In this document: in pieces, positions 4,900 through 60,668 of the stretch
How positions within the stretch are numbered: position 1 is the first letter of the stretch
Layout of the letters: each line of letters starts with the position of its first letter
Assembly: GCA_050010215.1 (NCBI GenBank)
Contig: JBEKLL010000003.1
Span: 19,888-83,887, forward strand
Length of the DNA: 64,000 nucleotides
Source: Gaiellaceae bacterium
GTDB taxonomy: Bacteria; Actinomycetota; Thermoleophilia; Gaiellales; Gaiellaceae
Reading direction: 5' to 3'
The notes under the pieces: model-generated
Told to the model about the DNA's origin: nothing
The model's input: only the letters and a program-made list of their open reading frames with translations
The model's database searches: none
Made by a program: the position numbers and the translations under genes

Positions 4900-6534
<1,635 letters not shown>

Positions 6535-8149: not shown

Positions 8150-8205
8150 CCCGTCGGTAGTCGGGCCGCGGAGCGCTGGTCGCCTGTGAGGCGATCGTCC
8201 CACCC

Positions 8206-8256: not shown

Positions 8257-8347
8257 AACGCGGAGCCCGCGCGCAAAAGCTCCTGCTAACACCGCGATTT
8301 GTCGACGCGATAGCCGGCTCGGCGACGGTGGAGACAAAGGCGCACTC

Positions 8348-8390
8348 TCGTCACAAACGCCCCTTGACACCCAACGGTGCCTGGCACCGT
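8348..8390 (+). repeat. REP-like repeat copy B
   Basis: TCGTCACAAACGCCCCTTGACACCCAACGGTGCCTGGCACCG. Perfect 7-1-7 dyad CGGTGCC-T-GGCACCG. Confidence 0.75.
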
Positions 8391-8448
8391 TCGAGGCCAG
8401 GATCTCTCCGCGTGGGGAGCGAGAGTAGCGGTGGCGACGCGCGCGGCG

Positions 8449-11585: not shown

Positions 11586-11618
11586 GCGGGAGTCGGCACC
11601 GCCGCTAGCTCCTGGCCG

Positions 11619-14000
11619 ATGAACCTCTGTATCCCCTGGCTCGTCTTTCCGCTCCTTCTCGCCTTGCTCACGATCGGCTGCGGACTGCTGGTCGAGACGG
11701 TCGCCGGGCGCCGTCTGCCCGCCCCGCTCGTGTTGCCGGTCGGCCTGGCGATGCTGATCGTCGCCGCCAGCTTCGCGACCGAGTGGGCGGCCAGCGCCCG
11801 GCTGGCCGTGCCGCTCGTGATCGTCCTGACCGTCGCCGGCTTCGGTCTGAGTGACCGCTGGCATAAGAGCTATAGACGAGGTCGCAGCGCCTGGGCGTTT
11901 CTGGTGGCGCTTGCCTCCTACGCCGTCTATAGCGCCCCGGTCGTGCTATCAGGACAGGCCAGTTTCGCCGGCTACATGAAGCTCGATGACACCGCGACCT
12001 ACCTGGCGCTGGTCGATCGGGCGATGGAGCACGGGCGTAGTCTGGCCGGGCTGGCACCCTCCACCTACGAGGCAACGCTCTCGATCAGCCTGGCCATCGG
12101 CTACCCGCTGGGATCGCTGCTGCCGCTCGGGATCGGGCACGAGCTGCTGCGCACCGACTCGGCCTGGCTCTGGCAGCCCCAGCTCTCGTTCCTCGCCGCC
12201 ATGCTCGCGCTCGCCCTCTATGTGCTGGCCGCGCCGCTCGTGCGCCCGCGGCCACTGCGCGCGCTCGTCGCCTTCGTTGCGGCGCAGCCCGCGATCCTAT
12301 TCGGCTACGCGCTCTGGGGAGGAGTCAAGGAGCTGACAGCCGCCGTGCTCCTACCCACGCTGGCCGTGCTCGTGGTGGCGATCCTGCGCCAGGGAGGAGG
12401 CTTGCGCGAGTTGCTGGCGCCGGCCGTCGTCTGCGCGGCTCTGCTCGACGCGCTCAGCCTGCCGGCCGCCGTCTGGCTCTTGCCCGTAGTTGGGCTTGCC
12501 GTCGCGATGGCGATCGTGCGCGTCGGCTGGCGCCGCGCCGCCGTCCGGACGACCGTGCTCGGAGCCGCCGCCGCGGCGCTCGCGATTCCGGCGATCGTCG
12601 CGGCCTTCGACTGGCTTGGTCACACGCAAGCCTTCACCTCGACGGGCGAGCTGGGCAATCTGCTCGGTCCGCTCAGCCGGCTGCAGGTCTTCGGGATCTG
12701 GCTGCACGGCGACTTCCGCACGCCTCCCGCTTCGCGCGGCCCGACCTACATCTTGATCGGGATCGCCGCCGCCGCCGCGCTGCTCGGGCTCGTGCTCGCC
12801 TGGCGCAAGCGGGCACTGAAGCTGCTCCTGTACGTGCTCGGAGCGCTGGTCGCCTGCGCCGTCTTCGTCGAGGCCGGCTCGCCCTGGATCGGCGCCAAGG
12901 GGCTGGCGACGGCCGCGCCGGCGCTGCTCCTCGTCGCGCTCGCCGGCTGCACGGCGCTCGGCGTGGCCGGCTGGCGGAGCGGAGGCTGGCACGTCGGCGC
13001 CTTCATCGTCCTGGCCGCGATCGGCGGTGGTGTCGTCTGGTCGAACGTGCTCGCCTACCGTGACGTCTGGCTGGCGCCGCGCGCGCGGCTGAGCGAGCTG
13101 GTGACGATCGGCGATCGCTTCGCCGGCCAGGGCCCGGCGCTGATGACCGAGTACGAGCCCTTCGGCGCGCGCCACTTCCTGCGCACACTCGACGCCGAGG
13201 CCGTATCGTCGTTGCGCTGGCACACCATCCCGCTGAGGAACGGAAAGACGGTTGCGCCCTGGCAATCCGCCGACCTCGACGCTCTCCGCCTGAGTGGCGT
13301 CCTCTACTACAGAACGCTCGTGCTGCGCCGCTCGCCGGTGGCCAGCCGGCCGCCCTCGGTTTACCGGCTTGTCTGGCAGGGGCGCTTCTACGAGGTCTGG
13401 CAGCGGCCGCTGCTACCGGCGAAGATCATCGAGCACCTCTCGCTCGGCGACGCGCTCTCGCCCGGCGCGGTTCCGAGCTGTGCGGACGTGCTGGCGCTGG
13501 CACGGCGCGTGCCGGCGGGTGGGACGCTTGCGACCGTCGTCCGCAGTAAGCCGAACGTCGTCTCTTTGGCCGACGTCGCCGGCTGGAGGCCTTTCCCTCC
13601 GATCCCGGGCTCCGCCTACCCGCTCGACTCGCGCACGCTGGAAGAGAGAGTCTCGGTTCCGGCCGCGGGACGCTACGGCGTCTGGCTCGGTAACAGCTTC
13701 GCGGGCAGCGTGAGCATCGTCGTGGACGGGCGAGCGCTCGGCTCCGAGCACGAGCAGCTGAGCTGGAGCGGGCAGTACCAACCCTTCGCCGAGGTCACGC
13801 TCGAGGCGGGCACGCACACGGTCACGCTCGCCTATCGCCGCGGCGGCCCGCGCCCGGGCGCCGACTCCGTGCCCGTCTATCCGCTGGGGCCGCTCGTGCT
13901 GGCCCGGGAAACGGCCGCGCGCCCGGTCGAGCTGGTCGCACCCGAGGATGCGCGCTCGCTCTGCGGGCGTACACTCGACTGGGTCGAGGCAGTTTCGTAG
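11619..14000 (+). CDS. large polytopic membrane protein, putative GT-C-type glycosyltransferase with C-terminal soluble beta-rich domain (module protein B1)
   Basis: About 480 aa of hydrophobic helices. Loop motif YMKLDDTATYLA after the first helices. About 300-aa C-terminal non-membrane domain. Paralog of 17298-19658. Confidence 0.7.
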   Translation: MNLCIPWLVFPLLLALLTIGCGLLVETVAGRRLPAPLVLPVGLAMLIVAASFATEWAASARLAVPLVIVLTVAGFGLSDRWHKSYRRGRSAWAFLVALASYAVYSAPVVLSGQASFAGYMKLDDTATYLALVDRAMEHGRSLAGLAPSTYEATLSISLAIGYPLGSLLPLGIGHELLRTDSAWLWQPQLSFLAAMLALALYVLAAPLVRPRPLRALVAFVAAQPAILFGYALWGGVKELTAAVLLPTLAVLVVAILRQGGGLRELLAPAVVCAALLDALSLPAAVWLLPVVGLAVAMAIVRVGWRRAAVRTTVLGAAAAALAIPAIVAAFDWLGHTQAFTSTGELGNLLGPLSRLQVFGIWLHGDFRTPPASRGPTYILIGIAAAAALLGLVLAWRKRALKLLLYVLGALVACAVFVEAGSPWIGAKGLATAAPALLLVALAGCTALGVAGWRSGGWHVGAFIVLAAIGGGVVWSNVLAYRDVWLAPRARLSELVTIGDRFAGQGPALMTEYEPFGARHFLRTLDAEAVSSLRWHTIPLRNGKTVAPWQSADLDALRLSGVLYYRTLVLRRSPVASRPPSVYRLVWQGRFYEVWQRPLLPAKIIEHLSLGDALSPGAVPSCADVLALARRVPAGGTLATVVRSKPNVVSLADVAGWRPFPPIPGSAYPLDSRTLEERVSVPAAGRYGVWLGNSFAGSVSIVVDGRALGSEHEQLSWSGQYQPFAEVTLEAGTHTVTLAYRRGGPRPGADSVPVYPLGPLVLARETAARPVELVAPEDARSLCGRTLDWVEAVS

Positions 14001-17297: not shown

Positions 17298-19658
17298 ATG
17301 GCTCTACTCGCTGCCTGGATTCTCTTCCCCTTGGTGCTCGCTCTGCTTGCCTGCGGCTGCGGCTTGCTCGTCCAGAACGTAAGCGGCGATCGTCTACCGC
17401 CGGGCCTGCTTCTTCCATCCGGACTCGCGCTGATGATCGTCGCTGCCGACCTCACGACTGCCTCGGCGCGGACGGCGCCCATCACCATCCCGCTCGTTAT
17501 CGCGCTCGCCGTCGCGGGGTTTGGACTCGCTTTTCCTTGGCGCCCCGGGCGAGGTGATCTCTGGCTATCGGCTGCGGCGCTCGCGGTCATCGCGGTCTAC
17601 GCGGCGCCGGTCGTCTTATCCGGGCAGGCAACCTTCGCCGGCTACATCAAGCTCGACGACACCGCGACGTTTCTTGCCTTTACCGATCGCGTCATGCAGC
17701 ACGGGCGCAGTCTCGCCGGTCTCGCGCCGTCCAGCTACCAAGCAACCCTCGCGGCCAATATCCCCTCGGGCTATCCCCTTGGAGCCTTCTTTCCACTCGG
17801 CATCGGCGGTCACCTCGTCGGAGTCGATCTGGCTTGGCTCTATCAGCCTTGCATCGCCTTCTTTGCTGCCATGCTCGTTTTCCCGTTCGGCTCATTGCTG
17901 GCTCCGCTCGTTCGCTTACACCGGCTGCGGGCGCTCGCTGCGTTCATCGCCGCCCAGGCGGCGCTCCTCTACGGTTACGCACTCTGGGGCGGCGTAAAGG
18001 AGCTCGCCGCCGCCTTCCTGATCGCGAGCGCGGCCGCGCTCGCTCCGATCGCCCGCGAGGAGCTGGGCTCGATCCGGCGGCTGGTCCCGTTCGCGCTCGC
18101 CTGCGCCGCTCTGCTCGCGACGCTGAACGTCAGCGCCGGACTCTGGCTGCTGCCGCTCGGACTGCCGGCGATCGTCGTCGCGCTTCGCCATCGCGCCAAG
18201 CGCCTGCTGCTCACGATCGTCGCGGGGATCGGCCTGATTGCCGTCTTATCGCTGCCCACGCTCATCATCGCCCGCAGTTTCTTACGCAGCGTTCCCACCG
18301 GACCTCAGGAGCTCGGTAACCTGGTACGGCCGCTCAGCCTCCTGCAGCTCTTCGGTCTCTGGCCGTCCGGCGACTTTCGTTTTTGGCCGCACCAGCACGC
18401 GGCGACCGAGCTTCTCGTGGCCGCCGCTGCTGCCGCCGCCGCTCTGTCTTTGCTGGTTGCCTTGAGACGCAGGTGCTGGCGGTTGCCTTTACTCGTCTTC
18501 GCGGTCGTGGCCGTGGCGCTCCTGATCGAGCGCACGTCTTCGCCGTGGCTCGCCGGCAAGGTGTATGCGGACGCCTCGCCCGTGCTCGTGCTCGCGGCGC
18601 TTGCGCTTGTGGCGATGCTGATCGAGCGGGGCTTCCGGATCGAAGCTCTCCTGCTCGGAGCCTTGATCGTGGGCGGTGTTCTCTGGTCGAACGTGCTTGC
18701 CTATCACGACGTCTGGCTCGCTCCGCGAGCCCAGCTCCACGAGCTCGAGTGGATCGGGAATCGCTACGCCGGCCAGGGGCCGGCCCTGATGACGGAGTAC
18801 CAACCCTACGGCGTGCGTCATTTCCTGCGCAGGCTCGATGCGGAGGGCGCGTCGGAGCTACGCGCACGTCCTGTTCTGCTCAATAACGGGACGATGCTCG
18901 GGAAGGCCGAGTTCGCTGACCTCGACCGCTTTGCAATCAGCAGCCTGCTTGTCTATCGCACGATCGTGCTGCACACCTCGCCGGTGGAGAGCCGCCCGCC
19001 GGCGCCCTACTCGCTCGTTTGGCAGGGACGCTACTACGAGGTCTGGCAGCGGCCCGACCCGTCCGCACCGCAGGTGCTCGAGCACCTCGGGCTCGGCGAT
19101 GCGCTGCACGCCGCGGCGGTGCCGGCGTGCGCCGATATCCTGCGCCTGGGCACCGTTGCGGCGCGGGCGGGCGGGCGGCTCGTCGCGGTGCCGCGCGCGA
19201 ACGGCGTTTTGCTCCCGCTTGCCCGGACTGAGCACCCCGCGGGCTGGTCTTCCGACTCGACCGGTCAGATGGTTGTCCCGACGAGCGCCGGCGTACTCAC
19301 AGGAAGCATCGCCGTCCCGGTAAGCGGTCGTTACACGGTCTGGGTCGGAGGCTCGTTCGTCCGAACGGTCACGATCTCGATCGACGGGCGCCGCGTCGGC
19401 TCGCTCGGGAACATGTTGACCGAGACAAGCCAGTGGACCCCCTTCGGCTCGCTCCGTCTCGTTCCGGGCGGCCACACCGTGACCCTGCGCTACGGCGGAT
19501 CGGAGCTTGTGCCCGGAACCGGTGCGGGCCCGTTCGCGCTCGGCCCGCTCGCGCTCAGCCCGACGCAGCCCGGCGAGAACCTTGTCAGCGTCTCGCCCAC
19601 CGACGCGCGCTCGCTCTGCGATGAAAGTCTTGACTGGGTCGAGGCCGTTGGGCCGTAG
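17298..19658 (+). CDS. large polytopic membrane protein, putative GT-C-type glycosyltransferase (module protein B2)
   Basis: Start at MALLAAWILFPLVLALLACGCGLL, aligned to the B1 N-terminus. Shares YIKLDDTATFLA, WGGVKEL and GQGPALMTEY..LVWQGRYYEVWQRP with B1. Confidence 0.7.
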   Translation: MALLAAWILFPLVLALLACGCGLLVQNVSGDRLPPGLLLPSGLALMIVAADLTTASARTAPITIPLVIALAVAGFGLAFPWRPGRGDLWLSAAALAVIAVYAAPVVLSGQATFAGYIKLDDTATFLAFTDRVMQHGRSLAGLAPSSYQATLAANIPSGYPLGAFFPLGIGGHLVGVDLAWLYQPCIAFFAAMLVFPFGSLLAPLVRLHRLRALAAFIAAQAALLYGYALWGGVKELAAAFLIASAAALAPIAREELGSIRRLVPFALACAALLATLNVSAGLWLLPLGLPAIVVALRHRAKRLLLTIVAGIGLIAVLSLPTLIIARSFLRSVPTGPQELGNLVRPLSLLQLFGLWPSGDFRFWPHQHAATELLVAAAAAAAALSLLVALRRRCWRLPLLVFAVVAVALLIERTSSPWLAGKVYADASPVLVLAALALVAMLIERGFRIEALLLGALIVGGVLWSNVLAYHDVWLAPRAQLHELEWIGNRYAGQGPALMTEYQPYGVRHFLRRLDAEGASELRARPVLLNNGTMLGKAEFADLDRFAISSLLVYRTIVLHTSPVESRPPAPYSLVWQGRYYEVWQRPDPSAPQVLEHLGLGDALHAAAVPACADILRLGTVAARAGGRLVAVPRANGVLLPLARTEHPAGWSSDSTGQMVVPTSAGVLTGSIAVPVSGRYTVWVGGSFVRTVTISIDGRRVGSLGNMLTETSQWTPFGSLRLVPGGHTVTLRYGGSELVPGTGAGPFALGPLALSPTQPGENLVSVSPTDARSLCDESLDWVEAVGP

Positions 19659-19757
19659 CGCGCGTTTTGTCGGCGCTGGACAGCGTCAAAGAATTCTGAG
19701 AGGCTTCATGCCGGTGTTGAGTCCAGCAGCGATACGTTCAAGTCTCCTGCGGTCACG

Positions 19758-20741
19758 GTGAATTCCTTGCCGGGTCAGACAAGCCCAGGGAAGTACGCCC
19801 AGCTTCGGCCGGCGATTCGGCTCGTGGCTGTGCTTGGCCTGGCCGTGGTCGTCGGCGTCTTGGTCTGGCTCGTCGGGAACAACGGCAGTAAATCTTCGGC
19901 GCCGAGTCCCGGCACGACCAAGGTCGTCTCCCAAGAGGGGCTGGTGGCTCTGGTGAGCGCAGTGAACCAACCGGTCTTCTGGGTCGGCCCGGAGCAGGGC
20001 GCACGCTACACGTTCGAGCGGCGATCGAACGGGCAATCCTACGTTCGCTATCTCTCCAGCCAGATGAAGTCGGACACGACCGACACCCTGACGATCGGCA
20101 CCTACCAGATGCGTAACGCCTACTCGGTGACGCTCGCGCTGGGCAGGCGAAGCGGCTGGACACAGGTCGCTACCGGCGCCGGTGGAGTGAGCGCCTTCGT
20201 TTACGAGACCCATCCCAAAAGCGTCTACCTCGCCCTGCCCGGCCTCGACTATCAGATCGAGGTCTACGATCCGAAGCCGGGCGGCGCTGCCGCGCTCGTA
20301 CGCAGCGGTCGGGTGATCGAGGTGCAGCAGGGCGAGCGTCTCGGTCTCACCCTGGCTGAGCTCGAGACGACGGTCGCCGCCTCCGGCAAACCGGTCTACT
20401 GGATCGGCCCGAAGCCCGGAACGATCTACGAGTACACGCGTTCTCCGGCCGGAAACGTCTACATCCGCTACGTGCCCACGGGTGTGGCGGTCGGTACGGC
20501 CAGCTCGTACCTGACGATCGGGACGTATCCGATGAAAGATGCCTTTACGACCACCGAGCGGGCTGCCGCCGCGGCCGGCGCGGTTCGGCTGTCGCTGACC
20601 GGCGCTGTGGTTTTCTACAACACGGCCAAGCCTACGAGCGTCTACATCGCCTTCAAGAACGCCGACTACCAGATCGAGATCTACGACCCCGTACCGGAAC
20701 GAGCGCGCAACCTCGTCCCCGTCGTCAAGGCTCTTCGCTAA
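19758..20741 (+). CDS. membrane-anchored tandem-domain protein (module protein A2)
   Basis: Roughly 55-60% identical by eye to A1 over the whole ectodomain. Same internal duplication. Confidence 0.7.
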   Translation: MNSLPGQTSPGKYAQLRPAIRLVAVLGLAVVVGVLVWLVGNNGSKSSAPSPGTTKVVSQEGLVALVSAVNQPVFWVGPEQGARYTFERRSNGQSYVRYLSSQMKSDTTDTLTIGTYQMRNAYSVTLALGRRSGWTQVATGAGGVSAFVYETHPKSVYLALPGLDYQIEVYDPKPGGAAALVRSGRVIEVQQGERLGLTLAELETTVAASGKPVYWIGPKPGTIYEYTRSPAGNVYIRYVPTGVAVGTASSYLTIGTYPMKDAFTTTERAAAAAGAVRLSLTGAVVFYNTAKPTSVYIAFKNADYQIEIYDPVPERARNLVPVVKALR

Positions 20742-22594: not shown

Positions 22595-24863
<2,269 letters not shown>

Positions 24864-30691: not shown

Positions 30692-30771
30692 CGGGCCAGT
30701 CGCAGACGTGCGGATGGCGACTTTCGCCGCGCGTACGGGTGCTTTGGGGGAGCCTCGCGAAAGTCACTTTT

Positions 30772-30824
30772 TCGTCACAAACACCCCTTGACACCCCCCG
30801 GTGTCAGACACCGTTTGGTGTCAA
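30772..30824 (+). repeat. REP-like repeat copy C (downstream flank of RAYT)
   Basis: TCGTCACAAACACCCCTTGACACC-cccc-GGTGTCAGACACC-gttt-GGTGTCAA. Two hairpins or a nested dyad. Lies 12 nt from the RAYT stop. Confidence 0.8.
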
Positions 30825-30836
30825 GTCTATGTCGCG

Positions 30837-31421: not shown

Positions 31422-31480
31422 GCATCAAGCCTAGATCTGGCTCCCGCTCCAGATGGGCTCGTGAGATAAACGCTCCACTT

Positions 31481-31529
31481 TCGTAACGCATTTTTCTTGA
31501 CACCACCCGGTGTCTGACACCGGGTGGGG
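31481..31529 (+). repeat. REP-like repeat copy D (upstream flank of RAYT)
   Basis: TCGTAACGCATTTTTCTTGACACC-accc-GGTGTCTGACACCGGGTGGGG. Confidence 0.75.
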
Positions 31530-41267: not shown

Positions 41268-42041
41268 ATGCCGGGCAGATTCGAGGGCAAACGCGGGTTG
41301 ATTCTCGGCGTCGCCAACAAGCGCTCGATCGCCTGGGCAATCGCGCGCAGGCTCGCCGACGAGGGAGCGGCGCTGGCCTTCACCTTCCAGGGCGAGCGCA
41401 TCGAGACGAACGTGCGCGAGCTGGCGGAATCGGTCTCGAGTCCGCTCGTCACCGCCTGCGACGTGCGCCAGGAGGAGGATTGCAGGCGCGCTGTGAGCGA
41501 GGCCGCATCCGCACTCGGCGGTCTCGATTTCGTCGTGCACTCGGTCGCCTTCGCGGCCGCCGAGGATCTCGAAGGGCGCTTCGTCGACACGCCGCGCGAG
41601 CGCTTCTGGATGGCGCTCGACGTCAGCGCCTACTCGCTGGTGGCGATCGCCCGCGCGGCCGAGCCCTATCTCGCCGAGACCAGTGGCTCGATCGTGACCA
41701 TGACCTACCTTGGCGGTGAGCGCGCGGTTCCGCACTACAACGTCATGGGCGTGGCCAAGGCGACGCTCGAGGCCTCGATGCGCTACCTCGCCTGGGATCT
41801 CGGCGTCGAGGGTATCCGCGTCAACGCGGTCTCGGCCGGTCCCGTTCGCACGCTCGCCGCGCGCTCGATTGCGGGCTTCCCGACCATGGAGGCGATCGTC
41901 GGCGAGCGCGCTCCACTTCGGCGTCAGATAGACGCCGAGGATGTCGCCGCCGCCAGCGCCTTCCTGCTCTCCGACGACGCCCGCAATGTCAGCGGCACGA
42001 TCCTCTACGTGGACTCCGGCTACCACGCCATGGGCATGTAG
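41268..42041 (+). CDS. fabI: enoyl-[acyl-carrier-protein] reductase (NADH)
   Basis: GKRGLILGVANKRSIAW, Y..MGVAK catalytic motif. 257 aa. Confidence 0.9.
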   Translation: MPGRFEGKRGLILGVANKRSIAWAIARRLADEGAALAFTFQGERIETNVRELAESVSSPLVTACDVRQEEDCRRAVSEAASALGGLDFVVHSVAFAAAEDLEGRFVDTPRERFWMALDVSAYSLVAIARAAEPYLAETSGSIVTMTYLGGERAVPHYNVMGVAKATLEASMRYLAWDLGVEGIRVNAVSAGPVRTLAARSIAGFPTMEAIVGERAPLRRQIDAEDVAAASAFLLSDDARNVSGTILYVDSGYHAMGM

Positions 42042-42191
42042 CTCGCGCTCTCGGCCGGCGGCTCCGTCCGGCGAGGCGCGACTCGCCTCCCGGGGCCGCC
42101 TGACACCGCTGAGCGCACTTCGCTCTACGGCGCCGTGCGAAGCACTGTCTCCTCCGGCGAAGCACACTCAGCGGCGCCCCGAGAGCGCGAG
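42042..42191 (+). repeat. 150-nt structured repeat (same family as the tRNA-trailer elements), directly after the fabI stop
   Basis: P1 CTCGCGCTCTCGG / CCGAGAGCGCGAG (13 bp perfect). Hairpin GGCGAG-gcgcga-CTCGCC. P2 CGCTGAG/CTCAGCG. Core CACTGTCTCCTCCGG. Confidence 0.7.
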
Positions 42192-42573
42192 CGGCGACTC
42201 GGTGTTGTTCGGACTTGGCCGGTAGCTCTGTGAGGCCGGGCGCGACGGAACTCCCTAAGAAGCTGGTCGAGATCGCTTGCGAACAGCCTATTTGCAGGTA
42301 TTTACCAACCTTCGCGGCGTCCCGGCGTCGTAGAGGGTGGTTGGCAAGAGCGGGCGCTTGACTTGAGGGGAAGCCGAGCACGCAACGCAAGTCGTGCTCA
42401 CAGGTCTGAGCCGTTCTTGTCTCCGAGAGCGTGCGAGCGGGGTGCGGCGCCCCGCCCGCACGCCGCTATCGTCGGCTTCGCCCGCGATCGCTCAGCTAGG
42501 CTGCTCGATCGTGAGCGGCGGTTCCACGAAGACGTTGGGCCGACCGTGACGACCTTTCAATGAAGACGGATAG

Positions 42574-54097: not shown

Positions 54098-54532
54098 ATG
54101 ACGCGAGTGCTCATTATCGACGACGAAGCGCCGATCAGGCTGCTTTGCCGTGTCAATCTCGAGGCCGAGGGCATGGAGGTGGTCGAGGCGGCCGACGGAG
54201 CAGCCGGGATCGCGCAGGCGCGCAGCGAGCGCCCGGACGTGGTTCTGCTCGATGTGATGATGCCGCGGCTCGACGGTTGGGAAGTAGCGGATGCCCTGCT
54301 CCGCGACGAGCTCACCAAGGAGATACCGATCATCTTCTTAACTGCTCGAGCCGAGGTGCGGGATCGTGCTCGTGGACTCGATATCGGCGGCGTCGAGTAC
54401 ATCACCAAGCCGTTCAACCCGCTCGAGCTGGCTCCTCTGGTCGAGGATCTCATCGCGAGGATCCAGCGCGACGGGATCGATCTCTTGCGTAGCGAGAAGC
54501 TGGCCGAGCTACGCGCCCTCTCCCGCGAATAG
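54098..54532 (+). CDS. single-domain response regulator (receiver only)
   Basis: IDDE acidic pocket, phospho-acceptor LLDVMMP, conserved T and K (ITKPF). Confidence 0.85.
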   Translation: MTRVLIIDDEAPIRLLCRVNLEAEGMEVVEAADGAAGIAQARSERPDVVLLDVMMPRLDGWEVADALLRDELTKEIPIIFLTARAEVRDRARGLDIGGVEYITKPFNPLELAPLVEDLIARIQRDGIDLLRSEKLAELRALSRE

Positions 54533-54661
54533 TCCCGCCGGTAGAACCGGCGCAGACTTCTCGCGGCGGCGGAGGCAGGCGAATGAGCCGCGCCCGCGTA
54601 GGTCGGTCGGGGCGGCTACCGAATGCAGGGGCGAGCCGCCGGGGGCGTAGACTTCTGACGG

Positions 54662-54735
54662 CGGGACGTGGCGCAGCCTGGTAGCGCGCCTGCTTTGGGA
54701 GCAGGAGGCCCCCGGTTCGAATCCGGGCGTCCCGA
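54662..54735 (+). tRNA. tRNA-Pro (anticodon UGG)
   Basis: Hand-folded cloverleaf: acceptor CGGGACG/CGTCCCG, anticodon loop TTTGGGA, T-arm CCCGG-TTCGAAT-CCGGG. No encoded CCA. Confidence 0.9.
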
Positions 54736-54898
54736 CCTCGCTTACTCGGTCTGCGGCTTCGTGCGGCCAAGCAGGCGGGTCTTCCGGGGCCGCCTGGCAC
54801 CGCTGGCCGCACGTCGCTCTACGGATCTGTGCCGGATGCACTAACCCCTCCGGCGCCGCACGGCCAGCGGTATCCCGAAATAGCGAGAAGCTTTAGTA
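54736..54898 (+). repeat. tRNA-trailer structured repeat (copy at tRNA-Pro)
   Basis: P1 CTCGCTTACTCGG / CCGAAATAGCGAG. Hairpin GCGGCC...GGCCGC. P2 CCGCTGGCCG / CGGCCAGCGG. Core CACTAACCCCTCCGG. Confidence 0.7.
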
Positions 54899-54917
54899 CG
54901 AATCCGGGTGTCCCGAC
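54899..54917 (+). repeat. displaced duplicate of the tRNA-Pro 3' end (att-like direct repeat)
   Basis: CGAATCCGGGTGTCCCGAC versus tRNA 54718-54736 CGAATCCGGGCGTCCCGAC (18/19). Followed by TTTTCTTCGG. Confidence 0.7.
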
Positions 54918-54941
54918 TTTTCTTCGGACGTTCGCTGGCGC

Positions 54942-54966
54942 GGTAGAAACGGTGTTTGACACCGGG
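54942..54966 (-). repeat. partial REP-like copy E
   Basis: Reverse complement CCCCGGTGTCAAACACCGTTTCTACC matches the dyad part of REP copies A-D. Confidence 0.5.
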
Positions 54967-54996
54967 GCCGGACGGTCGTGGGATATCCTGCTCCGG

Positions 54997-55587
54997 ATGG
55001 CTCACGACGACTGGCGAATTCACGTCGAGCTCGCGGGAGAATCCGAGCCGGCCGGTTTTCTCGAGCGCCTCAGAAGCGGTCTCGGCGACGAGGCTGAAGA
55101 GCTTGCGAAGACGCTCGAGGGCGATCGCCTTGCGATTTCCCGTGACGGCAGCGAGCTCTTCGCCTACGCCTCGAGCTATCTCCAGGCCGAAAGCGCGCAC
55201 GCCGTGATCGAGGCCGAGCTCCGGCGCCACGGCTTCGAGGCGAAGGTCAGCCGCGTCGAGCACTGGCTCGAAAGCGAGGAGCGCTGGGACGATGAGCCGA
55301 AAGGCGAGACCTGGGAAGAGGAAGAGGCCGAGCACGGCCGGGCTCCCTGGGAGGTTCGCGTACAGTGCGAATCCCACTCCGCGGCCCGTGACCTGGCGGA
55401 GCGGCTCGAGGGCGAGGGCTACCGGCCGGTCAGGCGCTGGCGCTACCTGATTGTGGGGGCCGACACGCGCGAGGATGCCGAGAAGCTTGCCCGGCGCCTG
55501 CACGGCGATGTCGAGGCGGGCGGCGACGTGGCTTGGGAGGAAGCCGCCGACGCCGGCGTCATCAGTCCCTTTCGGATCTTTGGCTAG
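54997..55587 (+). CDS. hypothetical acidic cytoplasmic protein
   Basis: Start moved to the internal ATG because the 5' 168 nt of the ORF cover repeat sequences. Glu/Asp/Arg-rich, 196 aa. Confidence 0.5.
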   Translation: MAHDDWRIHVELAGESEPAGFLERLRSGLGDEAEELAKTLEGDRLAISRDGSELFAYASSYLQAESAHAVIEAELRRHGFEAKVSRVEHWLESEERWDDEPKGETWEEEEAEHGRAPWEVRVQCESHSAARDLAERLEGEGYRPVRRWRYLIVGADTREDAEKLARRLHGDVEAGGDVAWEEAADAGVISPFRIFG

Positions 55588-55599
55588 CGGATCCCGGCG

Positions 55600-55728
55600 G
55601 GCGAATTCGCGAAGTCACACGGCTCCGTAGAGTGACGTGCCGCCGAGGGCGTCAGGAAGGCCCGCCGGCCTGGCGCACCGGCGAGTAGCAACGGCGAGCG
55701 GGAGGAGCCGGGGTAATAACGAATCGCC
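55600..55728 (-). repeat. partial second (tandem) copy of the tRNA-trailer repeat
   Basis: Reverse complement aligns to the Pro copy through GCCAGGCCGGCGGGCCTTCC...GGCACGTCACTCTACGGAGCCGTG, then truncates. Confidence 0.4.
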
Positions 55729-55878
55729 CTCGCTTCCTCGGGACGCCGCTAAGCGTGCGAGCCCGGAGAGGACAGTGTTTCCACACGAACTCGAAGAGGA
55801 TCGTGCCGCCAGCGGCGCCAGGCGGATCCGGGAGGCCGGGCTCCCCGGCCGCACGGAGCCGCCGACCGAGCAAGCGAG
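55729..55878 (-). repeat. tRNA-trailer structured repeat (copy at tRNA-Gly)
   Basis: P1 CTCGCTTGCTCGG / CCGAGGAAGCGAG. Hairpin GGCCGGG-gag-CCCGGCC. Core CACTGTCCTCTCCGGGCTCGCAC identical to the Arg-UCG copy. Confidence 0.75.
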
Positions 55879-55879
55879 A

Positions 55880-55950
55880 AAGCGGGTGACGGGAATCGAA
55901 CCCGTATAGCCAGCTTGGAAGGCTGGAGCTCTACCGTTGAGCTACACCCG
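55880..55950 (-). tRNA. tRNA-Gly (anticodon UCC)
   Basis: Cloverleaf: GCGGGTG acceptor, anticodon loop CTTCCAA, T-arm ACGGG-TTCGATT-CCCGT. No CCA. Confidence 0.9.
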
Positions 55951-56075
55951 CGGGCACCGGTAGCCTAGCGTCCGGCGATGCCGGGGTGAGCTCCCGGTGT
56001 AATCCCCTTTTCGAGGGGCCTTTTCCTCACTTCGGAGGATTAACAGAGGCCGGAAAAAGGTCGATCCTGCCTTTT

Positions 56076-56621
56076 GTGGTCTTCCGGAAGTCGGGACGAG
56101 TCGTTGCGTGCGCCTTCGGCGTTGTTCTCGTCTGCCTGCTCGCGGCACCGGTTGCCGGTTCGGCGCCGGCAAGTGGCCGAACGGTCTCCGCTACAGCGCT
56201 GAGCAATCAGATCCTGCGCGAGGTGAACCGCGTCCGCGCACAACACGGCCTGCGGCCGCTCGCGGCGTCGCCTCAACTGGCCGGCGCTGCCGCAAGCCAT
56301 TCCCGCTCGATGGCACTGCGCGGATACTTCGCGCACGAGTCGGCTGACGGCTCGGTCTTCTGGCATCGAATCCAGCACTATTACGGCGGGAGCGGATTCC
56401 ACTACTGGGCGGTGGGCGAGAACCTTGTTTGGGCGTCGCCGAGCCTGAGCGCAAAACAAGCGGTACAGATGTGGATCAAGAGTCCTCCGCACCGCGCGAA
56501 CTTGCTGAGTACGCGCTGGCAACAAATCGGCCTGTCGGCAGTGCATTCGCCCAGTGCGTCGGGCACCTATCAGGGTCGTGCAGTAACGATCGTGACGGCC
56601 GATTTCGGCGTTCGTCGCTAG
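56076..56621 (+). CDS. secreted CAP/SCP-domain protein
   Basis: Signal-like N-terminus from GTG 56076. CAP motifs (REVNRVRAQHGLRPL, GENL, SPPHRANLL). Confidence 0.75.
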   Translation: MVFRKSGRVVACAFGVVLVCLLAAPVAGSAPASGRTVSATALSNQILREVNRVRAQHGLRPLAASPQLAGAAASHSRSMALRGYFAHESADGSVFWHRIQHYYGGSGFHYWAVGENLVWASPSLSAKQAVQMWIKSPPHRANLLSTRWQQIGLSAVHSPSASGTYQGRAVTIVTADFGVRR

Positions 56622-56622
56622 C

Positions 56623-56656
56623 AAAGGCCTGATCGATACCGATAGATCGGCCTTTG
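56623..56656 (+). terminator. hairpin immediately after the CAP gene stop
   Basis: AAAGGCCTGATCGAT-accg-ATAGATCGGCCTTT. Confidence 0.4.
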
Positions 56657-57099
56657 AGCCCGCAGACGGCCGTCTCGAGATGGGATCGAGCGGCCCCGAC
56701 CGGTGTGAAGCCGGGAGCGAGTTGGGCGCTCATCGCTACGGAGGAGTGGCCGTCACACATTGCGCTCGACTTTCGCTCCAAAGACGGGATTCGTACTCCA
56801 GGCGTCTAGTCAACGGGCGTTCTCCGTCCTAGCTTCTGAGTATGAGGCTAGAACCGATTCCCCTCGCTCTGGCTGTTCTTTTCGCGCCTAGGGGGAGTCG
56901 TGCGCAGCCAGCACCAGCGCAAGCCTAAGCGTGGGATAGTTGCAAGCGCGAGCTCGAGCGGTTGAGTTCGCGCCTATCCCTGGACCGCCAAGCAACATGC
57001 GCATACCGGCACAGAGAAGGCACATTTGCTGCGCTTTTCCCCGCTACCGTGCGACTACCCCGCGGGCGGGTGGTTTTGGAGGCGGGCGCAGAACGTGGT

Positions 57100-57146
57100 C
57101 AGGAGGCCGTACGTATCGGCCGGGCGGAGTAGCCGACCGAGCGAAG
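57100..57146 (-). repeat. 5' portion of a tRNA-trailer repeat (copy at tRNA-His)
   Basis: In tRNA sense CCTTCGCTCGGTCGGCTACTCCGCCCGGCCG-atacgta-CGGCCTCC, versus the Gly copy TTTCTCGCTTGCTCGGTCGGCGGCTCCGTGCGGCCGGG. Confidence 0.45.
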
Positions 57147-57220
57147 GGTGACCGGTGGGATTCGAACCCACGACCACCGGGACCACAACCCGGGGCTCTA
57201 CCAACTGAGCTACGGCCACC
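57147..57220 (-). tRNA. tRNA-His (anticodon GUG) with encoded G-1
   Basis: Cloverleaf: extra 5' G opposite discriminator C, anticodon loop TTGTGGT, T-arm GTGGG-TTCGAAT-CCCAC. Confidence 0.9.
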
Positions 57221-57339
57221 GCGCGCCAGAAAGTCTAGCGGCGCGGACTGCCGAGCTTTCTCTGGTCGGGGGTCGATCCGTTCTACGGACGGCGAGATCG
57301 CCGAGACCTCGGATTCAGCTGGATAGTGCTTCTCGTAAA

Positions 57340-57906
57340 ATGCCCTCTGAGGCAGCCATGAACCGCGTTACTCCGGACGGCTCGCGAATGGTCGAACTGC
57401 TCGCCGCATCGGGCCCGTTCGAGGCCTATGCCGACCAGCTCATGCTCTTCGGCCAGTTCGTCGGTTCCTGGGATGTGGAGGCCTCGTACTTTGACGAATC
57501 GGGAGCGCTGACACGGACGCGACGAGGAGAGTGGCATTTCGGCTGGGTGCTAGAAGGCAGGGCGATCCAGGACGTGCTTCTCACCCCTCCACTGGCAGAG
57601 CGGGGCAGCCCGGGCGCTCGTTCCGACGAATACGGCACGACAGTACGTTTCTACGACCCGAAAACAGATAGTTGGCAAGTCACCTGGCTGGGACCGGTTT
57701 TCGGACTGAGCGTCAGCCTGATCGCGCGCCGGGTTGGCGAGGAGATCTGGCTGGAAGGAAGGTCACCGGACGGGAATCTCTGCCGCTGGACCTTCTCGGA
57801 GATTCGTCCCGACAGCTTTCGTTGGCGCGGCTTCGACTCGTCGGATGAGGGCAGGTCATGGTTCCTGAGCGAAGAGATGCAGGTTCGCCGAAGAGCCGCC
57901 GTCTGA
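57340..57906 (+). CDS. hypothetical protein
   Basis: The 5' end of ORF 57148-57906 overlaps tRNA-His. Internal ATGs at 57340 and 57358. Globular composition, no family recognised. Confidence 0.5.
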   Translation: MPSEAAMNRVTPDGSRMVELLAASGPFEAYADQLMLFGQFVGSWDVEASYFDESGALTRTRRGEWHFGWVLEGRAIQDVLLTPPLAERGSPGARSDEYGTTVRFYDPKTDSWQVTWLGPVFGLSVSLIARRVGEEIWLEGRSPDGNLCRWTFSEIRPDSFRWRGFDSSDEGRSWFLSEEMQVRRRAAV

Positions 57907-58006
57907 CGTCAGCTCCCGTTTCCGGCCGTTCTAGAGGTCAGGTTCGAATCCCTCCGGTCGGGTGCATCGGAGTGGCAGTTCGACCGAGGCGTTACCCTTG
58001 TCGAGA

Positions 58007-58078
58007 GCGCCTGTAGCTCAGTGGAAGAGCGGCGGCCTTCTAAGCCGCGGGTCGGGGGTTCGAATCCCTCCAGGCGCG
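58007..58078 (+). tRNA. tRNA-Arg (anticodon UCU)
   Basis: Cloverleaf: GCGCCTG/CAGGCGC acceptor, anticodon loop CTTCTAA, T-arm GGGGG-TTCGAAT-CCCTC. Confidence 0.9.
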
Positions 58079-58123
58079 TTCTCGATGCGCTGGTCGCCGG
58101 GGCGCTCCCGGGCCGACCCGGGA

Positions 58124-58150
58124 AATCACTCAGCCGAGTGATTACTTTTT
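58124..58150 (+). terminator. intrinsic terminator after tRNA-Arg(UCU)
   Basis: AATCACTC-agcc-GAGTGATT followed by ACTTTTT. Confidence 0.6.
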
Positions 58151-58203
58151 GGCAAGATCGGGCGATCGTCTGGGATACCGCCGGCCAGCCGCCAGATCCT
58201 CCA

Positions 58204-59253
58204 GTGGAAACCTCGCCGTCTTCCAACCGTTATTACTCTTCCCTTGGGGCTCGATCCGAGCGCTCCGCGGACGTACCGATCGGCGCGACGATCGAGGAGC
58301 GTCGCTCGCGCGCCCGTAGCTCGCACGATTTCCTAACCCGGCCGGGTGCGATCGTCTGGGAAGCCGATCCGCTCGATTTCAGGACGATCTTCGTGAGTCA
58401 CCAGGCCGAAGAGATCCTGGGCTATCCGCTGCAGGCCTGGCTCGATGATGCTTCGTTTCTCGAGCGCAGGCTCGATCCGGCGCGCAGCGAGGAAACGATG
58501 GCGCAGCTCCGCCGGGCTGTCGACGAAGGCGGTGACCACGTCTTCCCGTTACGCATGGTCGCAAGCGATGGAAACCCGGTCTTGTTGCGCGTTTTCCTGC
58601 ACTCGGAGTGCGACTGGCAGGGCCGGCCCCGGAGTCTCCACGGCGTGATGATCGACGCCAGCTCTCAACGTCTGGAATCGCAGCCGATCGTTATCCAACG
58701 GTCGTGTCTAGACACTCCCTCGAGCGAGACTCCGGTGTCTCCTTCCTCCAGCCGCGGCGGTCTCCCCCTTTCGCCGCGGCTGGAGGTGCCGGCAGAAGAG
58801 GGCGTCGATCTGAATCGACTCGTGCGCTCGCTCGAGCCCTCGCTCCGTCTCGAGCTTGGGCGTGCCGTCATATTGCGGCTCTCGCTCGAGGCCGACAAGG
58901 CTGTCGTCCCCATCATGCCGAGCTCGCTGGAGCGGGTGCTCCTTTGCCTTGCTCGCTACGCTCGCCGCTCGCTGCTTCAAGGCGGCGAGCTGGCGATCGA
59001 GACCTCGCTCGAAGAGAACGCGGACGGCTCGCGCTCGCTACTTCTGAGCTGTGCGGATACGGGCTTCGGGCTCGACGCGGTGCGCCGAGCCAGCGTCTTT
59101 GCCACACTCTTCGCCGGCCGATCGACCGAGCAGGAGGCGCAGGGTCTGCTCAGAGCGGTCGAGGAGATCATCGGTAACGCGGGCGGCTCGCTTTCGATCC
59201 ACGACGAGCCGTTTGGCGGCACACGTTTCGAGATCGTCTTCCCCGTTTCCTGA
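58204..59253 (+). CDS. PAS domain plus HATPase_c-like protein lacking a recognisable H-box (possibly 5'-truncated)
   Basis: PAS-like region (IVWEADPLDFRTIFVSHQAEEILGYP). C-terminal ATPase-like G-boxes (DTGFGL; GGTRFEIVFP). No ATG and only weak GTG candidates. The ORF's annotated 5' end lies inside the tRNA. Confidence 0.45.
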   Translation: METSPSSNRYYSSLGARSERSADVPIGATIEERRSRARSSHDFLTRPGAIVWEADPLDFRTIFVSHQAEEILGYPLQAWLDDASFLERRLDPARSEETMAQLRRAVDEGGDHVFPLRMVASDGNPVLLRVFLHSECDWQGRPRSLHGVMIDASSQRLESQPIVIQRSCLDTPSSETPVSPSSSRGGLPLSPRLEVPAEEGVDLNRLVRSLEPSLRLELGRAVILRLSLEADKAVVPIMPSSLERVLLCLARYARRSLLQGGELAIETSLEENADGSRSLLLSCADTGFGLDAVRRASVFATLFAGRSTEQEAQGLLRAVEEIIGNAGGSLSIHDEPFGGTRFEIVFPVS

Positions 59254-59311
59254 GCGGCGATCGAAGCTGTCTGCGAGCGCTGCACGCGACTCCGTCTATC
59301 CTTCGAGAGCC

Positions 59312-59396
59312 GCGGGCGTGGCGGAACTGGTAGACGCGACGGGTTTAGGTCCCGTTGGGCCGAGTGCCTGTGGAGGTTCGAGTCCTCTCGCCCGCA
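59312..59396 (+). tRNA. tRNA-Leu (anticodon UAG)
   Basis: Type II tRNA with long variable arm. Anticodon loop TTTAGGT. Acceptor GCGGGCG/CGCCCGC. Confidence 0.9.
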
Positions 59397-59553
59397 TCCT
59401 CGGCGCACTGACCGTGGGTCGGCTTTGTGGCCGACCCGCTGACGGTTCTGGACTGCAGGATGCTGCGCATGCCTCGCTTGTCCGTACCGGGCGTACTGTC
59501 CTGCGCTCGGCATCCTTGCCTCCTTTGCCAGAACCGTCTCAGTGCGCCGAGGA
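59397..59553 (+). repeat. tRNA-trailer structured repeat (divergent copy at tRNA-Leu)
   Basis: P1 TCCTCGGCGCACTGA / TCAGTGCGCCGAGGA (15 bp). Hairpin GGGTCGGC-tttgtg-GCCGACCC. P2 GACGGTTCTGG / CCAGAACCGTC. Core TACTGTCCTGCGCTCGG. Confidence 0.65.
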
Positions 59554-59650
59554 AGCGCCGCGTTGATGTGAGAATCGAATTAGCGCTGCGCTCTTGCCAC
59601 CTCCTTTGCTAGCGCCGCTCCAGCACGCCGAGAAGCGATTCTGTGAATAT

Positions 59651-60310
59651 CTAGACGCTCTCGGGCTCTGTCGGGCCGGTGTCGAGTCGGAAGGGCGGGT
59701 ACTCGTCGCGCATCAACGCCGCGTAGGCGGTCACGCGCAGCACCCAGCGGTTCAAGCCCATGACGAAGTCGAACAGCTCAGGCGGGTAGCGCTTACGGAA
59801 GAGCAGGACGATGCCGGCGATCAGGACGAGCAGTCCGATCAGGCCCGGCCCCCAGATGTGGAAGCCGCCCCCGCCCAGGAACACGGCGAGAATCAGATAC
59901 TGGGGAATCGCCAGCAGCCACCACTTGACCAGCACCAGCCCACGCGAGAGACGCTCCGGGTGGTCGATCTCGAGCCCGGCCGGATAGTCGGGCGCCTCGC
60001 CGAGCGTGAAGGGCGGGTAGCGATCGGTGCCGAGCGCCCGGTAGGAGTAGAAGCAGACCCGCCAGGTCCAGCGCAGCACGCCGACGTTGAAGTCGAATAT
60101 TCCCCGCGGGTAGCGCCCTGTGAACAGGATCGCGAAGAACGCGAAGACGCTCATGAGGATGAAGGCGAGCCAGAGGAAGATGAGCACGACGTAGTGCGGG
60201 ATTAGGAGAAACCACTTGACCAGCCAGAGCCAGCGGCTGAGCTCACCGTCGAGCTCACCTCTGACCCGGACGTGACGAGCGAGGTCGGAACGAGTAGCGG
60301 GCGCTTCCAT
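59651..60310 (-). CDS. DUF4389-family membrane protein
   Basis: Two repeats of the YP..IFDF..G..RW..RV..Y......D.YPPF motif with intervening TM helices. Confidence 0.75.
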
Positions 60311-60434
60311 GCTTCCTCCTCTACGAAGAATCCATACGAGCTTGCTCGATTATCAGCGCGGAAAACGCCTTTGTCGGTACGGGAAGCCGAACGCCGGGGT
60401 TCGGTGATCTCCCGATCATCGGATTGATGACGAA

Positions 60435-60596
60435 GCGCTCTCTCGCTTGCTAGGGGCGCCGCTGGCGGTGCGAGCCCGGAGAGGACAGTGGACACCACCA
60501 CGGCCTCGGAGAGGATCGTGCCGCCAGCGGGGTCAGACGGCTCCGGGCGACCGGTCGCGCCCGGGCGGTCGGAGCCGCCTGCCGAGAGCGCGGGAG
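60435..60596 (-). repeat. tRNA-trailer structured repeat (copy at tRNA-Arg UCG)
   Basis: P1 GCGCTCTC/GAGAGCGC. Hairpin CCGGGCG-cgaccggt-CGCCCGG nested in GGCTCCG/CGGAGCC. P2 CCGCTGGCGG/CCGCCAGCGG. Core CACTGTCCTCTCCGGGCTCGCAC. Confidence 0.75.
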
Positions 60597-60668
60597 CGGC
60601 CCCGGGAGGAATCGAACCTCCGCACGCGGATTCGAAGTCCGCCGCTCTATCCACTGAGCTACGGGGCC
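60597..60668 (-). tRNA. tRNA-Arg (anticodon UCG)
   Basis: Cloverleaf: GGCCCCG/CGGGGCC acceptor, anticodon loop CTTCGAA, T-arm GGAGG-TTCGATT-CCTCC. Confidence 0.88.

Follow-up and report, generated by a model that had tools for sequence, protein, structure and literature searches.

A branched, covarying repeat family at tRNA gene 3' ends and in operon spacers of Gaiellales genomes

The 64,000-nt stretch analyzed here, hereafter the window, is part of contig JBEKLL010000003.1 of a Gaiellaceae bacterium (GenBank assembly GCA_050010215.1, positions 19,888 to 83,887 of the forward strand) and includes six tRNA genes, several of which are followed immediately by a folded element of about 155 nt. 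An earlier note on this DNA had described the element as a family of three-helix repeats fused to the 3' ends of tRNA genes. The features of the region are listed in Table 1. Identification with ARAGORN and Rfam and reading of the flanks confirmed that the six tRNA genes lack an encoded CCA. The folded elements reported after the Pro, Gly, Arg-TCG and Leu tRNAs are present, three as strong copies and the one after tRNA-Leu as a divergent copy. The coordinates that had been given for these copies hold, but a sixth copy had been overlooked; it lies at the TAG stop codon of a gene coding for a FabI-like enoyl-ACP reductase.

The Pro, Gly and Arg-TCG copies and the segment 42042-42191 align with a mean column identity of 81%, and RNAalifold predicted from these four copies a single fold that consists of a two-segment outer stem, a long GC-rich hairpin and an inner arm. 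The inner arm encloses the conserved core GCAC...CUCU...CACUGUCCYCUCCGG...GCAC. All three helices proposed before are reproduced, namely an outer stem, a GC hairpin and an inner stem that encloses CACTGTCCYCTCCGG, and the element is modeled as a three-way junction of about 155 nt. The two strands of the outer stem double as terminal inverted repeats (YCTCGC...GCGAGR). The same four copies were used to build a model of sequence and pairing covariance, R1, which was run unfiltered on both strands of the whole window and detected exactly four strong copies, with scores of 141-155 bits and E values from 6e-32 to 6e-29. Besides these and the copy after tRNA-Leu, the remaining R1 signals were antisense echoes or noise, and a broader model, R2, gave the same picture. 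The four strong copies were also matched by a 25-base composite motif, with 0 matches expected, and a repeat finder listed the Arg-TCG copy and 42042-42191 as an inverted-repeat match.

Table 1. Elements, tRNA genes and associated features in the window.
Feature	Position	Strand	Basis and remarks
tRNA-Pro (TGG)	54662..54737	+	no encoded CCA; ARAGORN and Rfam
Full copy directly after tRNA-Pro	54736..54892	+	R1 150.7 bits, E 4.7e-31; R2 118 bits
Duplicated tRNA-Pro 3' end, from T-loop through discriminator	54897..54918	+	4-5 nt past the element; 18/20 identical to 54715-54734, also 16/18
tRNA-Gly (TCC)	55881..55951	-	ARAGORN and Rfam
Full copy directly after tRNA-Gly	55724..55879	-	R1 147.3 bits, E 2.5e-30; R2 130.6 bits
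Degenerate partial tandem copy 3' of the Gly copy (profile positions 44-98)	55615..55669	-	nhmmer, A5 profile
tRNA-His (GTG)	57146..57219	-	ARAGORN
Probable decayed 5' remnant after tRNA-His (TTCGCTCGGTCGGC...GGCCG-ATACGTA-CGGCC-TCCTGAC)	57095..57145	-	likeness by eye
tRNA-Arg (TCT)	58007..58078	+	ARAGORN; 3' flank begins TTCTCG (possible stub, by eye)
Canonical terminator past tRNA-Arg-TCT	58124-58150		terminator consensus scan
tRNA-Leu (TAG)	59312..59396	+	ARAGORN
Divergent Leu-type copy	59398..59556	+	R1 33.5 bits, E 1.6e-5; R2 36.1 bits, E 3e-6; fold z-score -6.7
tRNA-Arg (TCG)	60596..60668	-	ARAGORN
Full copy directly after tRNA-Arg-TCG	60437..60595	-	R1 141 bits, E 5.9e-29
Full subfamily A copy at the TAG stop of the FabI-like enoyl-ACP reductase gene (PF13561)	42041..42196	+	R1 154.8 bits, E 6e-32
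U/T-rich tail (ACTCGGTGTTGTTCGGAC) and apparent degenerate second unit	42197..42265	+	by eye, no model score

The weaker window copies differ in how well they are supported. The copy after tRNA-Leu has the same three-helix layout around a different core (GTACTGTCCTGCGCTCGG) and matches at 89% a copy located directly after tRNA-Glu in locus L095, where more relatives are found; it represents a further subfamily with its own core. The partial tandem copy that had been claimed to follow the Gly copy was detected with the sequence profile (nhmmer E 3.4e-4 for the window alone and 4.8e-3 for all loci). Of the truncated copy proposed after tRNA-His, the likeness by eye stands, and L098, L110 and L106 have full copies after the orthologous tRNA gene, but neither R1, R2 nor nhmmer gave it a significant score. 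The tail motif that follows the copy at 42041 is common to most copies of the window-type subfamily, subfamily A, and by eye resembles the tails in L115 and L083.

Distribution of the element was assessed with the 25-base core composite against one genome per GTDB species. At least 115 stretches were matched in about 69 species-representative metagenome-assembled genomes (MAGs), nearly all of them labelled Gaiellaceae, Gaiellales, Thermoleophilia or unclassified Actinomycetes; all copy counts in relatives given below are counts among these matches listed. The covariance model identified 137 copies in them, including weaker and tandem ones. A pattern match in L041 ('Rubrivivax') was set aside as a chance occurrence that lacks any model match. 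Seven loci are syntenic with the tRNA cluster of the window at 70-85% nucleotide identity, which places the window among Gaiellales-like MAGs, and a protein of the window was matched in the Logan assembly of SRR13021960. Rfam offers no match: at E<=1 only tRNAs were found in the window region, nothing else reached the gathering score window-wide, and a comparison of the elements with Rfam 15 at E<=1 returned only tRNAs and, in L008 and L079, transfer-messenger RNA (tmRNA). Full-text literature searches for Gaiellales or tRNA-downstream repeats produced nothing relevant, and the Gaiella occulta genome paper includes no description of them. The elements form a repeat family that has not been described before and is widespread in genomes of Gaiellales (Actinomycetota).

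Conservation of the fold was evaluated in alignment A5, which comprises 115 clean copies (R1 E<1e-9) from 100 sources. In this alignment, which is fitted to the model and in which many rows are orthologues, 93.1% of the pair cells are standard pairs versus 77% in column shuffles, and pairing falls to 38-44% when the partners are slid by 1-3 columns. Double-sided changes are found in 38 of the 51 pairs, for a total of 847 such cells versus 262 +/- 14 in shuffled alignments, and covariation is seen in all eight helices. The outer stem, YCTCGCNNNCTCGG / CCGAGNNNGCGAGR, is 90-97% paired across the 115 copies. Pairing is therefore kept despite sequence drift, as had been claimed from the window copies, with heavy covariation across the copies of the relatives. 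One U.G pair is kept on the sense strand in 100 of the 115 copies. When two special positions are excluded, A.C mismatches (140) outnumber G.U pairs (63) but are concentrated in few columns and, consequently, wobble use does not assign the strand that folds.

Of the 137 copies, 33 start on the same strand as a tRNA or tmRNA gene and at -2 to +3 nt relative to its last base. The chance expectation, estimated for 69 tRNAs within about 0.87 Mb, is about 0.03. The genes used in this manner belong to more than 16 tRNA species, plus tmRNA in L008 and L079. Two other copies follow tRNA-like fragments, ten stand in second or third place in tandem arrays with a spacing of 7-27 nt, and the others lie mostly between protein genes. 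The description of the family as fused to tRNAs alone was then too narrow; even in the window one copy follows fabI. Control of the orientation by the direction of replication was rejected, with elements following tRNAs on both strands within 6 kb. L098 has, after its tRNA-Leu-TAG and tRNA-Arg-TCG genes, a repeat of about 250 nt that is unrelated to the element (5600-5790, minus strand, and 6837-7100, plus strand); it includes a hairpin, CCGCGAAGAGTC...GACTCTTCGCGG, and then ...CTCTGTGCACGAGTCACCGCGCC... Since this repeat is also found there, more than one repeat family collects at tRNA 3' flanks.

Four subfamilies were distinguished by their outer-stem motif, and they differ in placement as determined, for the protein genes, with a crude custom frame caller based on GC content at third codon positions (GC3). 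Subfamily A (CTCGG, the window type) has 29 copies at RNA-gene 3' ends, 7 with an upstream protein gene in sense and 1 in antisense; nine others lie in non-coding flanks, four of them past terminators of the cold-shock gene csp, and two are tandem followers. Subfamily B (CCTGG) has 4 copies at RNA-gene 3' ends, 18 in sense and 11 in antisense to a protein gene, and 8 elsewhere. The corresponding numbers are 2, 12 and 2, with no others, in subfamily C (CCTGA), and 0, 1 and 3 in subfamily D (CCTCG), which also has 6 copies in gaps between divergent genes and 4 elsewhere. Copies of types B, C and D often occupy exactly the space between stop and start codons. Many copies have a stop codon at 0, -1, -3 or -5 and the next start codon 1-16 nt past the element, and in several protein contexts the outermost pairs include the upstream stop codon and its far-end complement. 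Together with a few short direct repeats at the element boundaries (described below), the latter arrangement hints that the insertion target may resemble, or contribute to, the element terminus.

Comparison of syntenic loci showed that occupancy varies from one genome to another. The tRNA-Pro locus is filled in the window, L108 and L064, is empty in L110, where the tRNA abuts the stop codon of a convergent regulator gene, and holds about 85 nt of wreckage in L106. The tRNA-Gly locus is filled in five genomes, and in L110 it holds a copy that is 3'-truncated past the hairpin. The tRNA-His locus is filled in L098, L110 and L106, reduced to a stub in the window, and occupied by a deletion derivative in L097. 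At tRNA-Leu, a copy is found in L097 and one of the other subfamily in the window, while L106 and L098 are empty and have ordinary hairpins instead. The tRNA-Arg-TCG locus is filled in the window only, and is empty or decayed in the other syntenic genomes. Convergent tRNAs can have one array in common. The internally deleted copy in L097 (4336-4401, 66-68 nt) abuts the convergent tRNA-His and tRNA-Arg-TCT genes and, the outer stem being palindromic, each of the two tRNA 3' ends faces a TCTCG-type start. The array that starts at tRNA-His in L098 reaches, with its far end, tRNA-Arg-TCT in antisense. The tRNA-Pro gene is itself inverted between lineages: in the window (54532-54737), L064 and L108 it is co-directional with a response-regulator gene and carries the element, and in L110 (3361-3449) and L106 (4046-4200) it converges on the response-regulator gene, with its 3' end touching the regulator stop in L110.

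Different genomes carry differing inner-arm variants at the same tRNA, and both variants coexist within genomes; this suggests that copies are replaced there or inserted anew. In arrays, the copy proximal to the tRNA is usually the one with the highest score (e.g., 157 versus 121 bits, 143/113/30 and 152/36), and nearly all partial matches are array followers. This order fits a process in which new insertions occur at the tRNA junction and older copies are pushed outward.

Copies were also found inside protein-coding genes. In L035, L077 and L076, the gene of an AddA/UvrD-like helicase has a copy between the segments that code for motif II (DEFQDTN) and motif III (VGDEFQSIY). The open reading frames (ORFs), of 1146-1404 amino acids, continue through the element without a change of frame, and a deletion of 24 nt in L076 leaves the frame intact. 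Among 120 related helicases, 115 have a short linker of 17-25 residues between motifs II and III. P0001 (88% identity) lacks the insertion and reads DLLATNDLFF, and P0072 and P0115 retain decayed in-frame remnants of the element. The empty-site DNA, ...CTGCTCGCG|ACC..., resembles the 5' end of the element, CTCGCG. A histidine kinase in L044 and L093 has a second, independent in-frame insertion; here the element is read in the same frame and splits the GAF domain.

Some of the flanks of the elements at RNA genes include a second, displaced tRNA end. Applying the criterion of at least 14/18 identical bases from T-loop to discriminator, a duplicate of the 3' end of the copy's own tRNA or tmRNA was found downstream of 8 of 36 RNA-gene copies, among them the copy after tRNA-Pro in the window, versus 1 of 96 others; at the remaining RNA-gene copies the duplicate is missing or decayed. 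In six of the eight cases the duplicate is located 4-8 nt past the element, and in the other two at 35 and 70 nt. In L007 the order is tRNA-Ala, element, fragment, element, fragment, with divergent elements and nearly identical fragments. In L097 an element that follows tRNA-Leu is followed by a tRNA-Ala fragment with the downstream synteny intact, which indicates that a tRNA fragment can travel with the element. The tail common to subfamily A copies (ATTCGNTNTTGTCCGGGC) looks like a decayed half of the tRNA-Pro T-arm. A different arrangement is found in L095 (4757-5120, minus strand) and L037 (2960-3307, plus strand), where the 5' half of tRNA-Glu-CTC is duplicated and the copy is inserted after nucleotide 37 of the duplicate, in the anticodon loop. 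The element is bracketed by a direct duplication of 62 nt, part of which is upstream sequence; then comes the intact tRNA-Glu, which in L095 is followed by a copy of the Leu type. In a few cases, such as CTCCTC in L035, a direct repeat of 6-8 nt extends over the first 5 nt of the outer stem, and in L088 and L022 the repeat ATGCCTGA/GTGCCTGA is found at the overlapping stop and start codons.

The interpretation that we favor, with moderate confidence, is that the element is a non-autonomous repeat mobilized in trans in a manner that depends on its structure, and that subfamily A targets the 3' ends of tRNA gene DNA (tDNA). At the DNA level, selfishness is indicated by the presence of copies in both orientations in operons, the translated copies inside ORFs, the insertion polymorphism, and the arrays and wrecks. 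In this scheme, the family would have spread across Gaiellales and Thermoleophilia, and would still turn over, as selfish DNA. Subfamily A would insert exactly at the base after the discriminator of tRNA or tmRNA genes, in the orientation of the gene, and fresh copies would push older ones outward to generate tandem arrays that then decay; less often, it would land right after the stop codons or terminators of protein genes. The sister subfamilies would settle in operon spacers in either orientation and occasionally in frame inside genes. The fixed insertion point and orientation at more than 16 tRNA species and tmRNA suggest that a putative trans-acting enzyme recognizes the conserved T-arm/acceptor geometry of the tDNA in addition to the folded element, and the fold would be maintained because mobilization requires it. 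Among the options listed in the earlier note, a miniature inverted-repeat transposable element (MITE) that targets tRNA 3' flanks is the one that fits best in view of the occupancy polymorphism, arrays, stubs and in-frame insertions. Nonetheless, this would not be a textbook MITE, with neither a consistent target-site duplication nor an autonomous partner found in the loci examined. Taken together, the element looks more like targeted selfish DNA than like an RNA dedicated to tRNA processing.

Several results weigh against the selfish-DNA interpretation. Direct repeats across the element boundaries, with palindromic artefacts set aside, were not in excess over mismatched-flank controls. No recurring transposase, integrase or reverse transcriptase was adjacent to the copies in the loci examined, no copy split by internal cargo was found in about 0.9 Mb of loci, where a profile search gave array fragments only, and a scan of viral contigs for the core motif gave 0 matches. 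Away from tRNAs, subfamily A still has nearly always the orientation of the gene upstream of it (about 7 independent sites in sense versus 1 in antisense), a bias that a role at the RNA level would predict as well. The protein-gene contexts depend on the crude frame caller mentioned above, and the loci were ascertained by the inner-arm core motif, so that conservation of the core sequence is overstated. Finally, when orthologous copies at the same locus were compared across species, pairing was preserved in 58 double changes and lost in 14, with 107 single breaks; these sums comprise seven groups away from tRNA and tmRNA genes and omit a 24-member 'orthologous' cluster that is an array artefact. 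Correction of quasi-palindromes by template switching during replication is a known mutational route. The 58:14 bias points to constraint in situ, gene conversion or palindrome-correcting template switching, and not to the simple decay of dead copies.

The main rival explanation, which we regard as possible but doubtful, is a host-functional RNA module that would be transcribed downstream of tRNAs, tmRNA and some mRNAs as their 3' trailer and would act either in cis in processing, termination or stability or as a stable small RNA (sRNA) released by RNase Z, with its spread being secondary. The element starts at the expected RNase Z cut of CCA-less tRNAs, subfamily A is almost exclusively in sense and at the ends of transcription units, the tRNA-proximal 5' parts persist where the remainder is deleted, and a U-rich tail follows the outer stem. 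The covariation in all helices and the compensatory changes among same-locus copies would also be accounted for, although covariation is equally expected for any repeat that needs its fold to propagate. Similarly, the conserved sense-strand U.G pair is of the kind that such a module would have, but the excess of A.C mismatches over G.U pairs leaves no clear sense-strand RNA signature. The sister subfamilies are more difficult to accommodate, since they occur in both orientations in operons (18 sense and 11 antisense in subfamily B) and are translated inside ORFs, as is the fact that orthologous tRNAs are freely found without the element and that arrays and wrecks are common. With regard to termination, a consensus scan that does find the terminator of tRNA-Arg-TCT predicted no intrinsic terminators at the element ends, and canonical terminators are used elsewhere. 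The tail is only U-rich and begins 4-5 nt past the stem. A canonical terminator was accordingly rejected as the identity of the element, which has no GC hairpin immediately followed by a U-tract.

A more specific proposal, which we deem rather improbable, is that the window-type subfamily is a three-way-junction trailer RNA of most tRNAs and tmRNA, freed by RNase Z at its first base, that either has a cellular role in cis or in trans or spreads through an RNA intermediate to the 3' ends of pre-tRNAs. If this were true, bacteria would have a retro-mobile or domesticated RNA coupled to tRNAs, and the selfish DNA copies in operons and ORFs would be its offshoots. The retro-mobile pathway taken by itself appears very unlikely. 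In it, the trailer RNA released by RNase Z joins, or is reached by template switching from, the 3' end of another pre-tRNA, and the product is reverse-transcribed and recombined into the tRNA gene. Mitochondrial retroplasmid reverse transcriptases, which switch to tRNA 3' ends, are a precedent. Such a pathway would account for a junction that falls exactly on the base after the discriminator, for an orientation that is strictly sense, for the many tRNAs and the tmRNA that serve as targets, and for the long duplications of variable length (20-31 nt at tRNA ends and 62 nt at tRNA-Glu in L095 and L037). However, no junction includes a CCA, no reverse transcriptase was seen near the copies, the antisense and in-ORF copies of the sister subfamilies need another route, and the pathway is speculative throughout.

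It seems highly unlikely that the elements are scars of tDNA-integrating islands, i.e., that each one is the attachment-site (attL)-proximal end of an island whose interior was later lost, leaving a displaced tRNA fragment behind. In a report on such islands, tRNA and tmRNA genes are the classic targets of tyrosine integrases and a regenerated gene and a displaced fragment mark the ends (PMC4383910), which is the configuration of the 8 of 36 RNA-gene copies bracketed by a tRNA 3' end and its duplicate; yet near-identical elements follow the Asp, Val, Lys and Gly tRNAs in CAVXWH01, which a tRNA-specific phage attachment site (attP) cannot achieve, the constant 4-8 nt between element and duplicate in 6 of the 8 cases would not result from independent deletions, most copies are away from tDNA, and no viral contigs matched. 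An island with an integrase does exist in L021 (5150-7557, minus strand), where an ORF of 431 amino acids similar to tyrosine integrases lies between tRNA-Tyr and a degenerate tRNA-Tyr 3' end that is followed by two elements. It looks like a separate island that integrated upstream of the displaced tRNA-Tyr end and of the older, pre-existing element array, and its integrase was rejected as the mobilizer of the elements.

Three known kinds of mobile or structured DNA were discarded on their defining features: integron recombination sites (attC), since the element ends in YCTCGC/GCGAGR without RYYYAAC ... GTTRRRY (R''/R') and its flanks are housekeeping genes in conserved synteny; derivatives of the insertion sequences (IS) IS200/IS605, such as palindrome-associated transposable elements (PATEs) and omega-RNA ends, since the upstream flanks have no common motif, terminal inverted repeats are present and there is no Rfam match to omega-RNA/HEARO (HNH endonuclease-associated RNA and ORF); and group II intron fragments.

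The window holds other repeats as well. Positions 22850-24600 hold a dense tract with a 9-nt period made of dozens of CCGGTNGNN-like units, presumably repetitive coding sequence rich in Gly and Pro on one strand. A repeat of about 75 nt, TCGTCACAAACGCCCCTTGACACC..CGGTG.C.GACACCG, which includes a TTGACA box and a short palindrome, occurs four times (8175-8249, 8317-8391, 30741-30825 and 31450-31527), with two of the copies inverted, and could be a repeated promoter or operator. The segments 10650-13410 and 17570-20690 are paralogous gene blocks with about 70-79% identity and an offset of roughly 5.6-9.2 kb.

Small structured repeats are common in bacteria and the movement of very few of them is understood. 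This family is a tractable case to learn how a 155-nt non-coding element finds tDNA ends and whether hosts co-opt such elements as tRNA trailers. It also has consequences for annotation: the elements seed spurious small ORFs, split domains, and could break MAG assemblies at tRNA clusters, and genomes of Gaiellales, an abundant group in soils and peat, would be better annotated with a covariance model of the family. A protein search with the element peptides yielded, from 17 word-index candidates, six tiny spurious ORFs; these public gene calls of 52-79 amino acids (P0121-P0126) are mere translations of the element.

The closest known kinds of elements are the Rickettsia palindromic elements (RPEs), MITEs, repetitive extragenic palindromic (REP) sequences with their REP doublets (REPINs), and mycobacterial interspersed repetitive units (MIRUs). 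RPEs are 100-150 bp long, abundant in intergenic and protein-coding regions, and have proliferated in a lineage-specific manner (PMC1779305). The element resembles them in being palindromic, in its intergenic and coding locations with in-frame insertions inside conserved proteins, and in persisting across species, and differs in its GC-rich, free-living actinobacterial host, the three-way junction, and the exact, oriented preference of one subfamily for tRNA and tmRNA 3' ends. Judging from host and base composition, homology to RPE-1 to RPE-8 is very unlikely. With MITEs it shares the small size, the absence of coding capacity, terminal inverted repeats of 13-15 bp (the outer stem), the many copies, insertion polymorphism and decay. 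Unlike MITEs, it has no target-site duplication of fixed length, no related autonomous IS was found in about 0.9 Mb of loci, its internal helices co-vary beyond what recognition of terminal repeats needs, and its insertion point in tDNA is exact. REP sequences, their bacterial interspersed mosaic elements (BIMEs), and the REPINs mobilized by REP-associated tyrosine transposases (RAYTs) are also extragenic structured repeats with arrays, compensatory changes and locations at gene 3' ends, and a fold-dependent, single-strand mobilization like theirs is plausible here. However, REPs are hairpins of 20-40 nt and REPINs are simple long hairpins, in contrast to the branched fold of 155 nt, and copies inside ORFs and tRNA targeting are not known as REP traits. 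No RAYT gene came to notice, though no search aimed at one was made. MIRUs are actinobacterial tandem units of 40-100 bp, oriented with the operon and not strongly folded, that fill operon spacers and whose ends overlap the flanking stop and start codons. The element fills operon spacers with stop and start codons at its ends in the same way, but it does so in both orientations and has copies at tRNA ends. With tDNA islands, as portrayed in the report cited above (PMC4383910), it shares the tRNA and tmRNA targets and the intact gene on one side with a displaced 3' fragment on the other. The 'island' would be of only about 160 bp and devoid of integrase, and one type of element serves many tRNAs. 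The sRNAs derived from tRNA 3' external transcribed spacers (3'ETS), such as that of glyW-cysT-leuZ in E. coli, are co-transcribed and freed by 3' processing, and are unstructured sponges from a single locus. The element, which would likewise be co-transcribed with tRNAs as a trailer, is instead multi-copy and covarying. What is unusual with respect to all these systems is the base-exact, oriented targeting of tRNA and tmRNA genes by a covarying branched fold, and three features seldom combined are found together here, namely covariation in every helix, base-exact oriented placement at tRNA and tmRNA genes, and RPE-like in-frame insertions in a free-living, GC-rich soil lineage.

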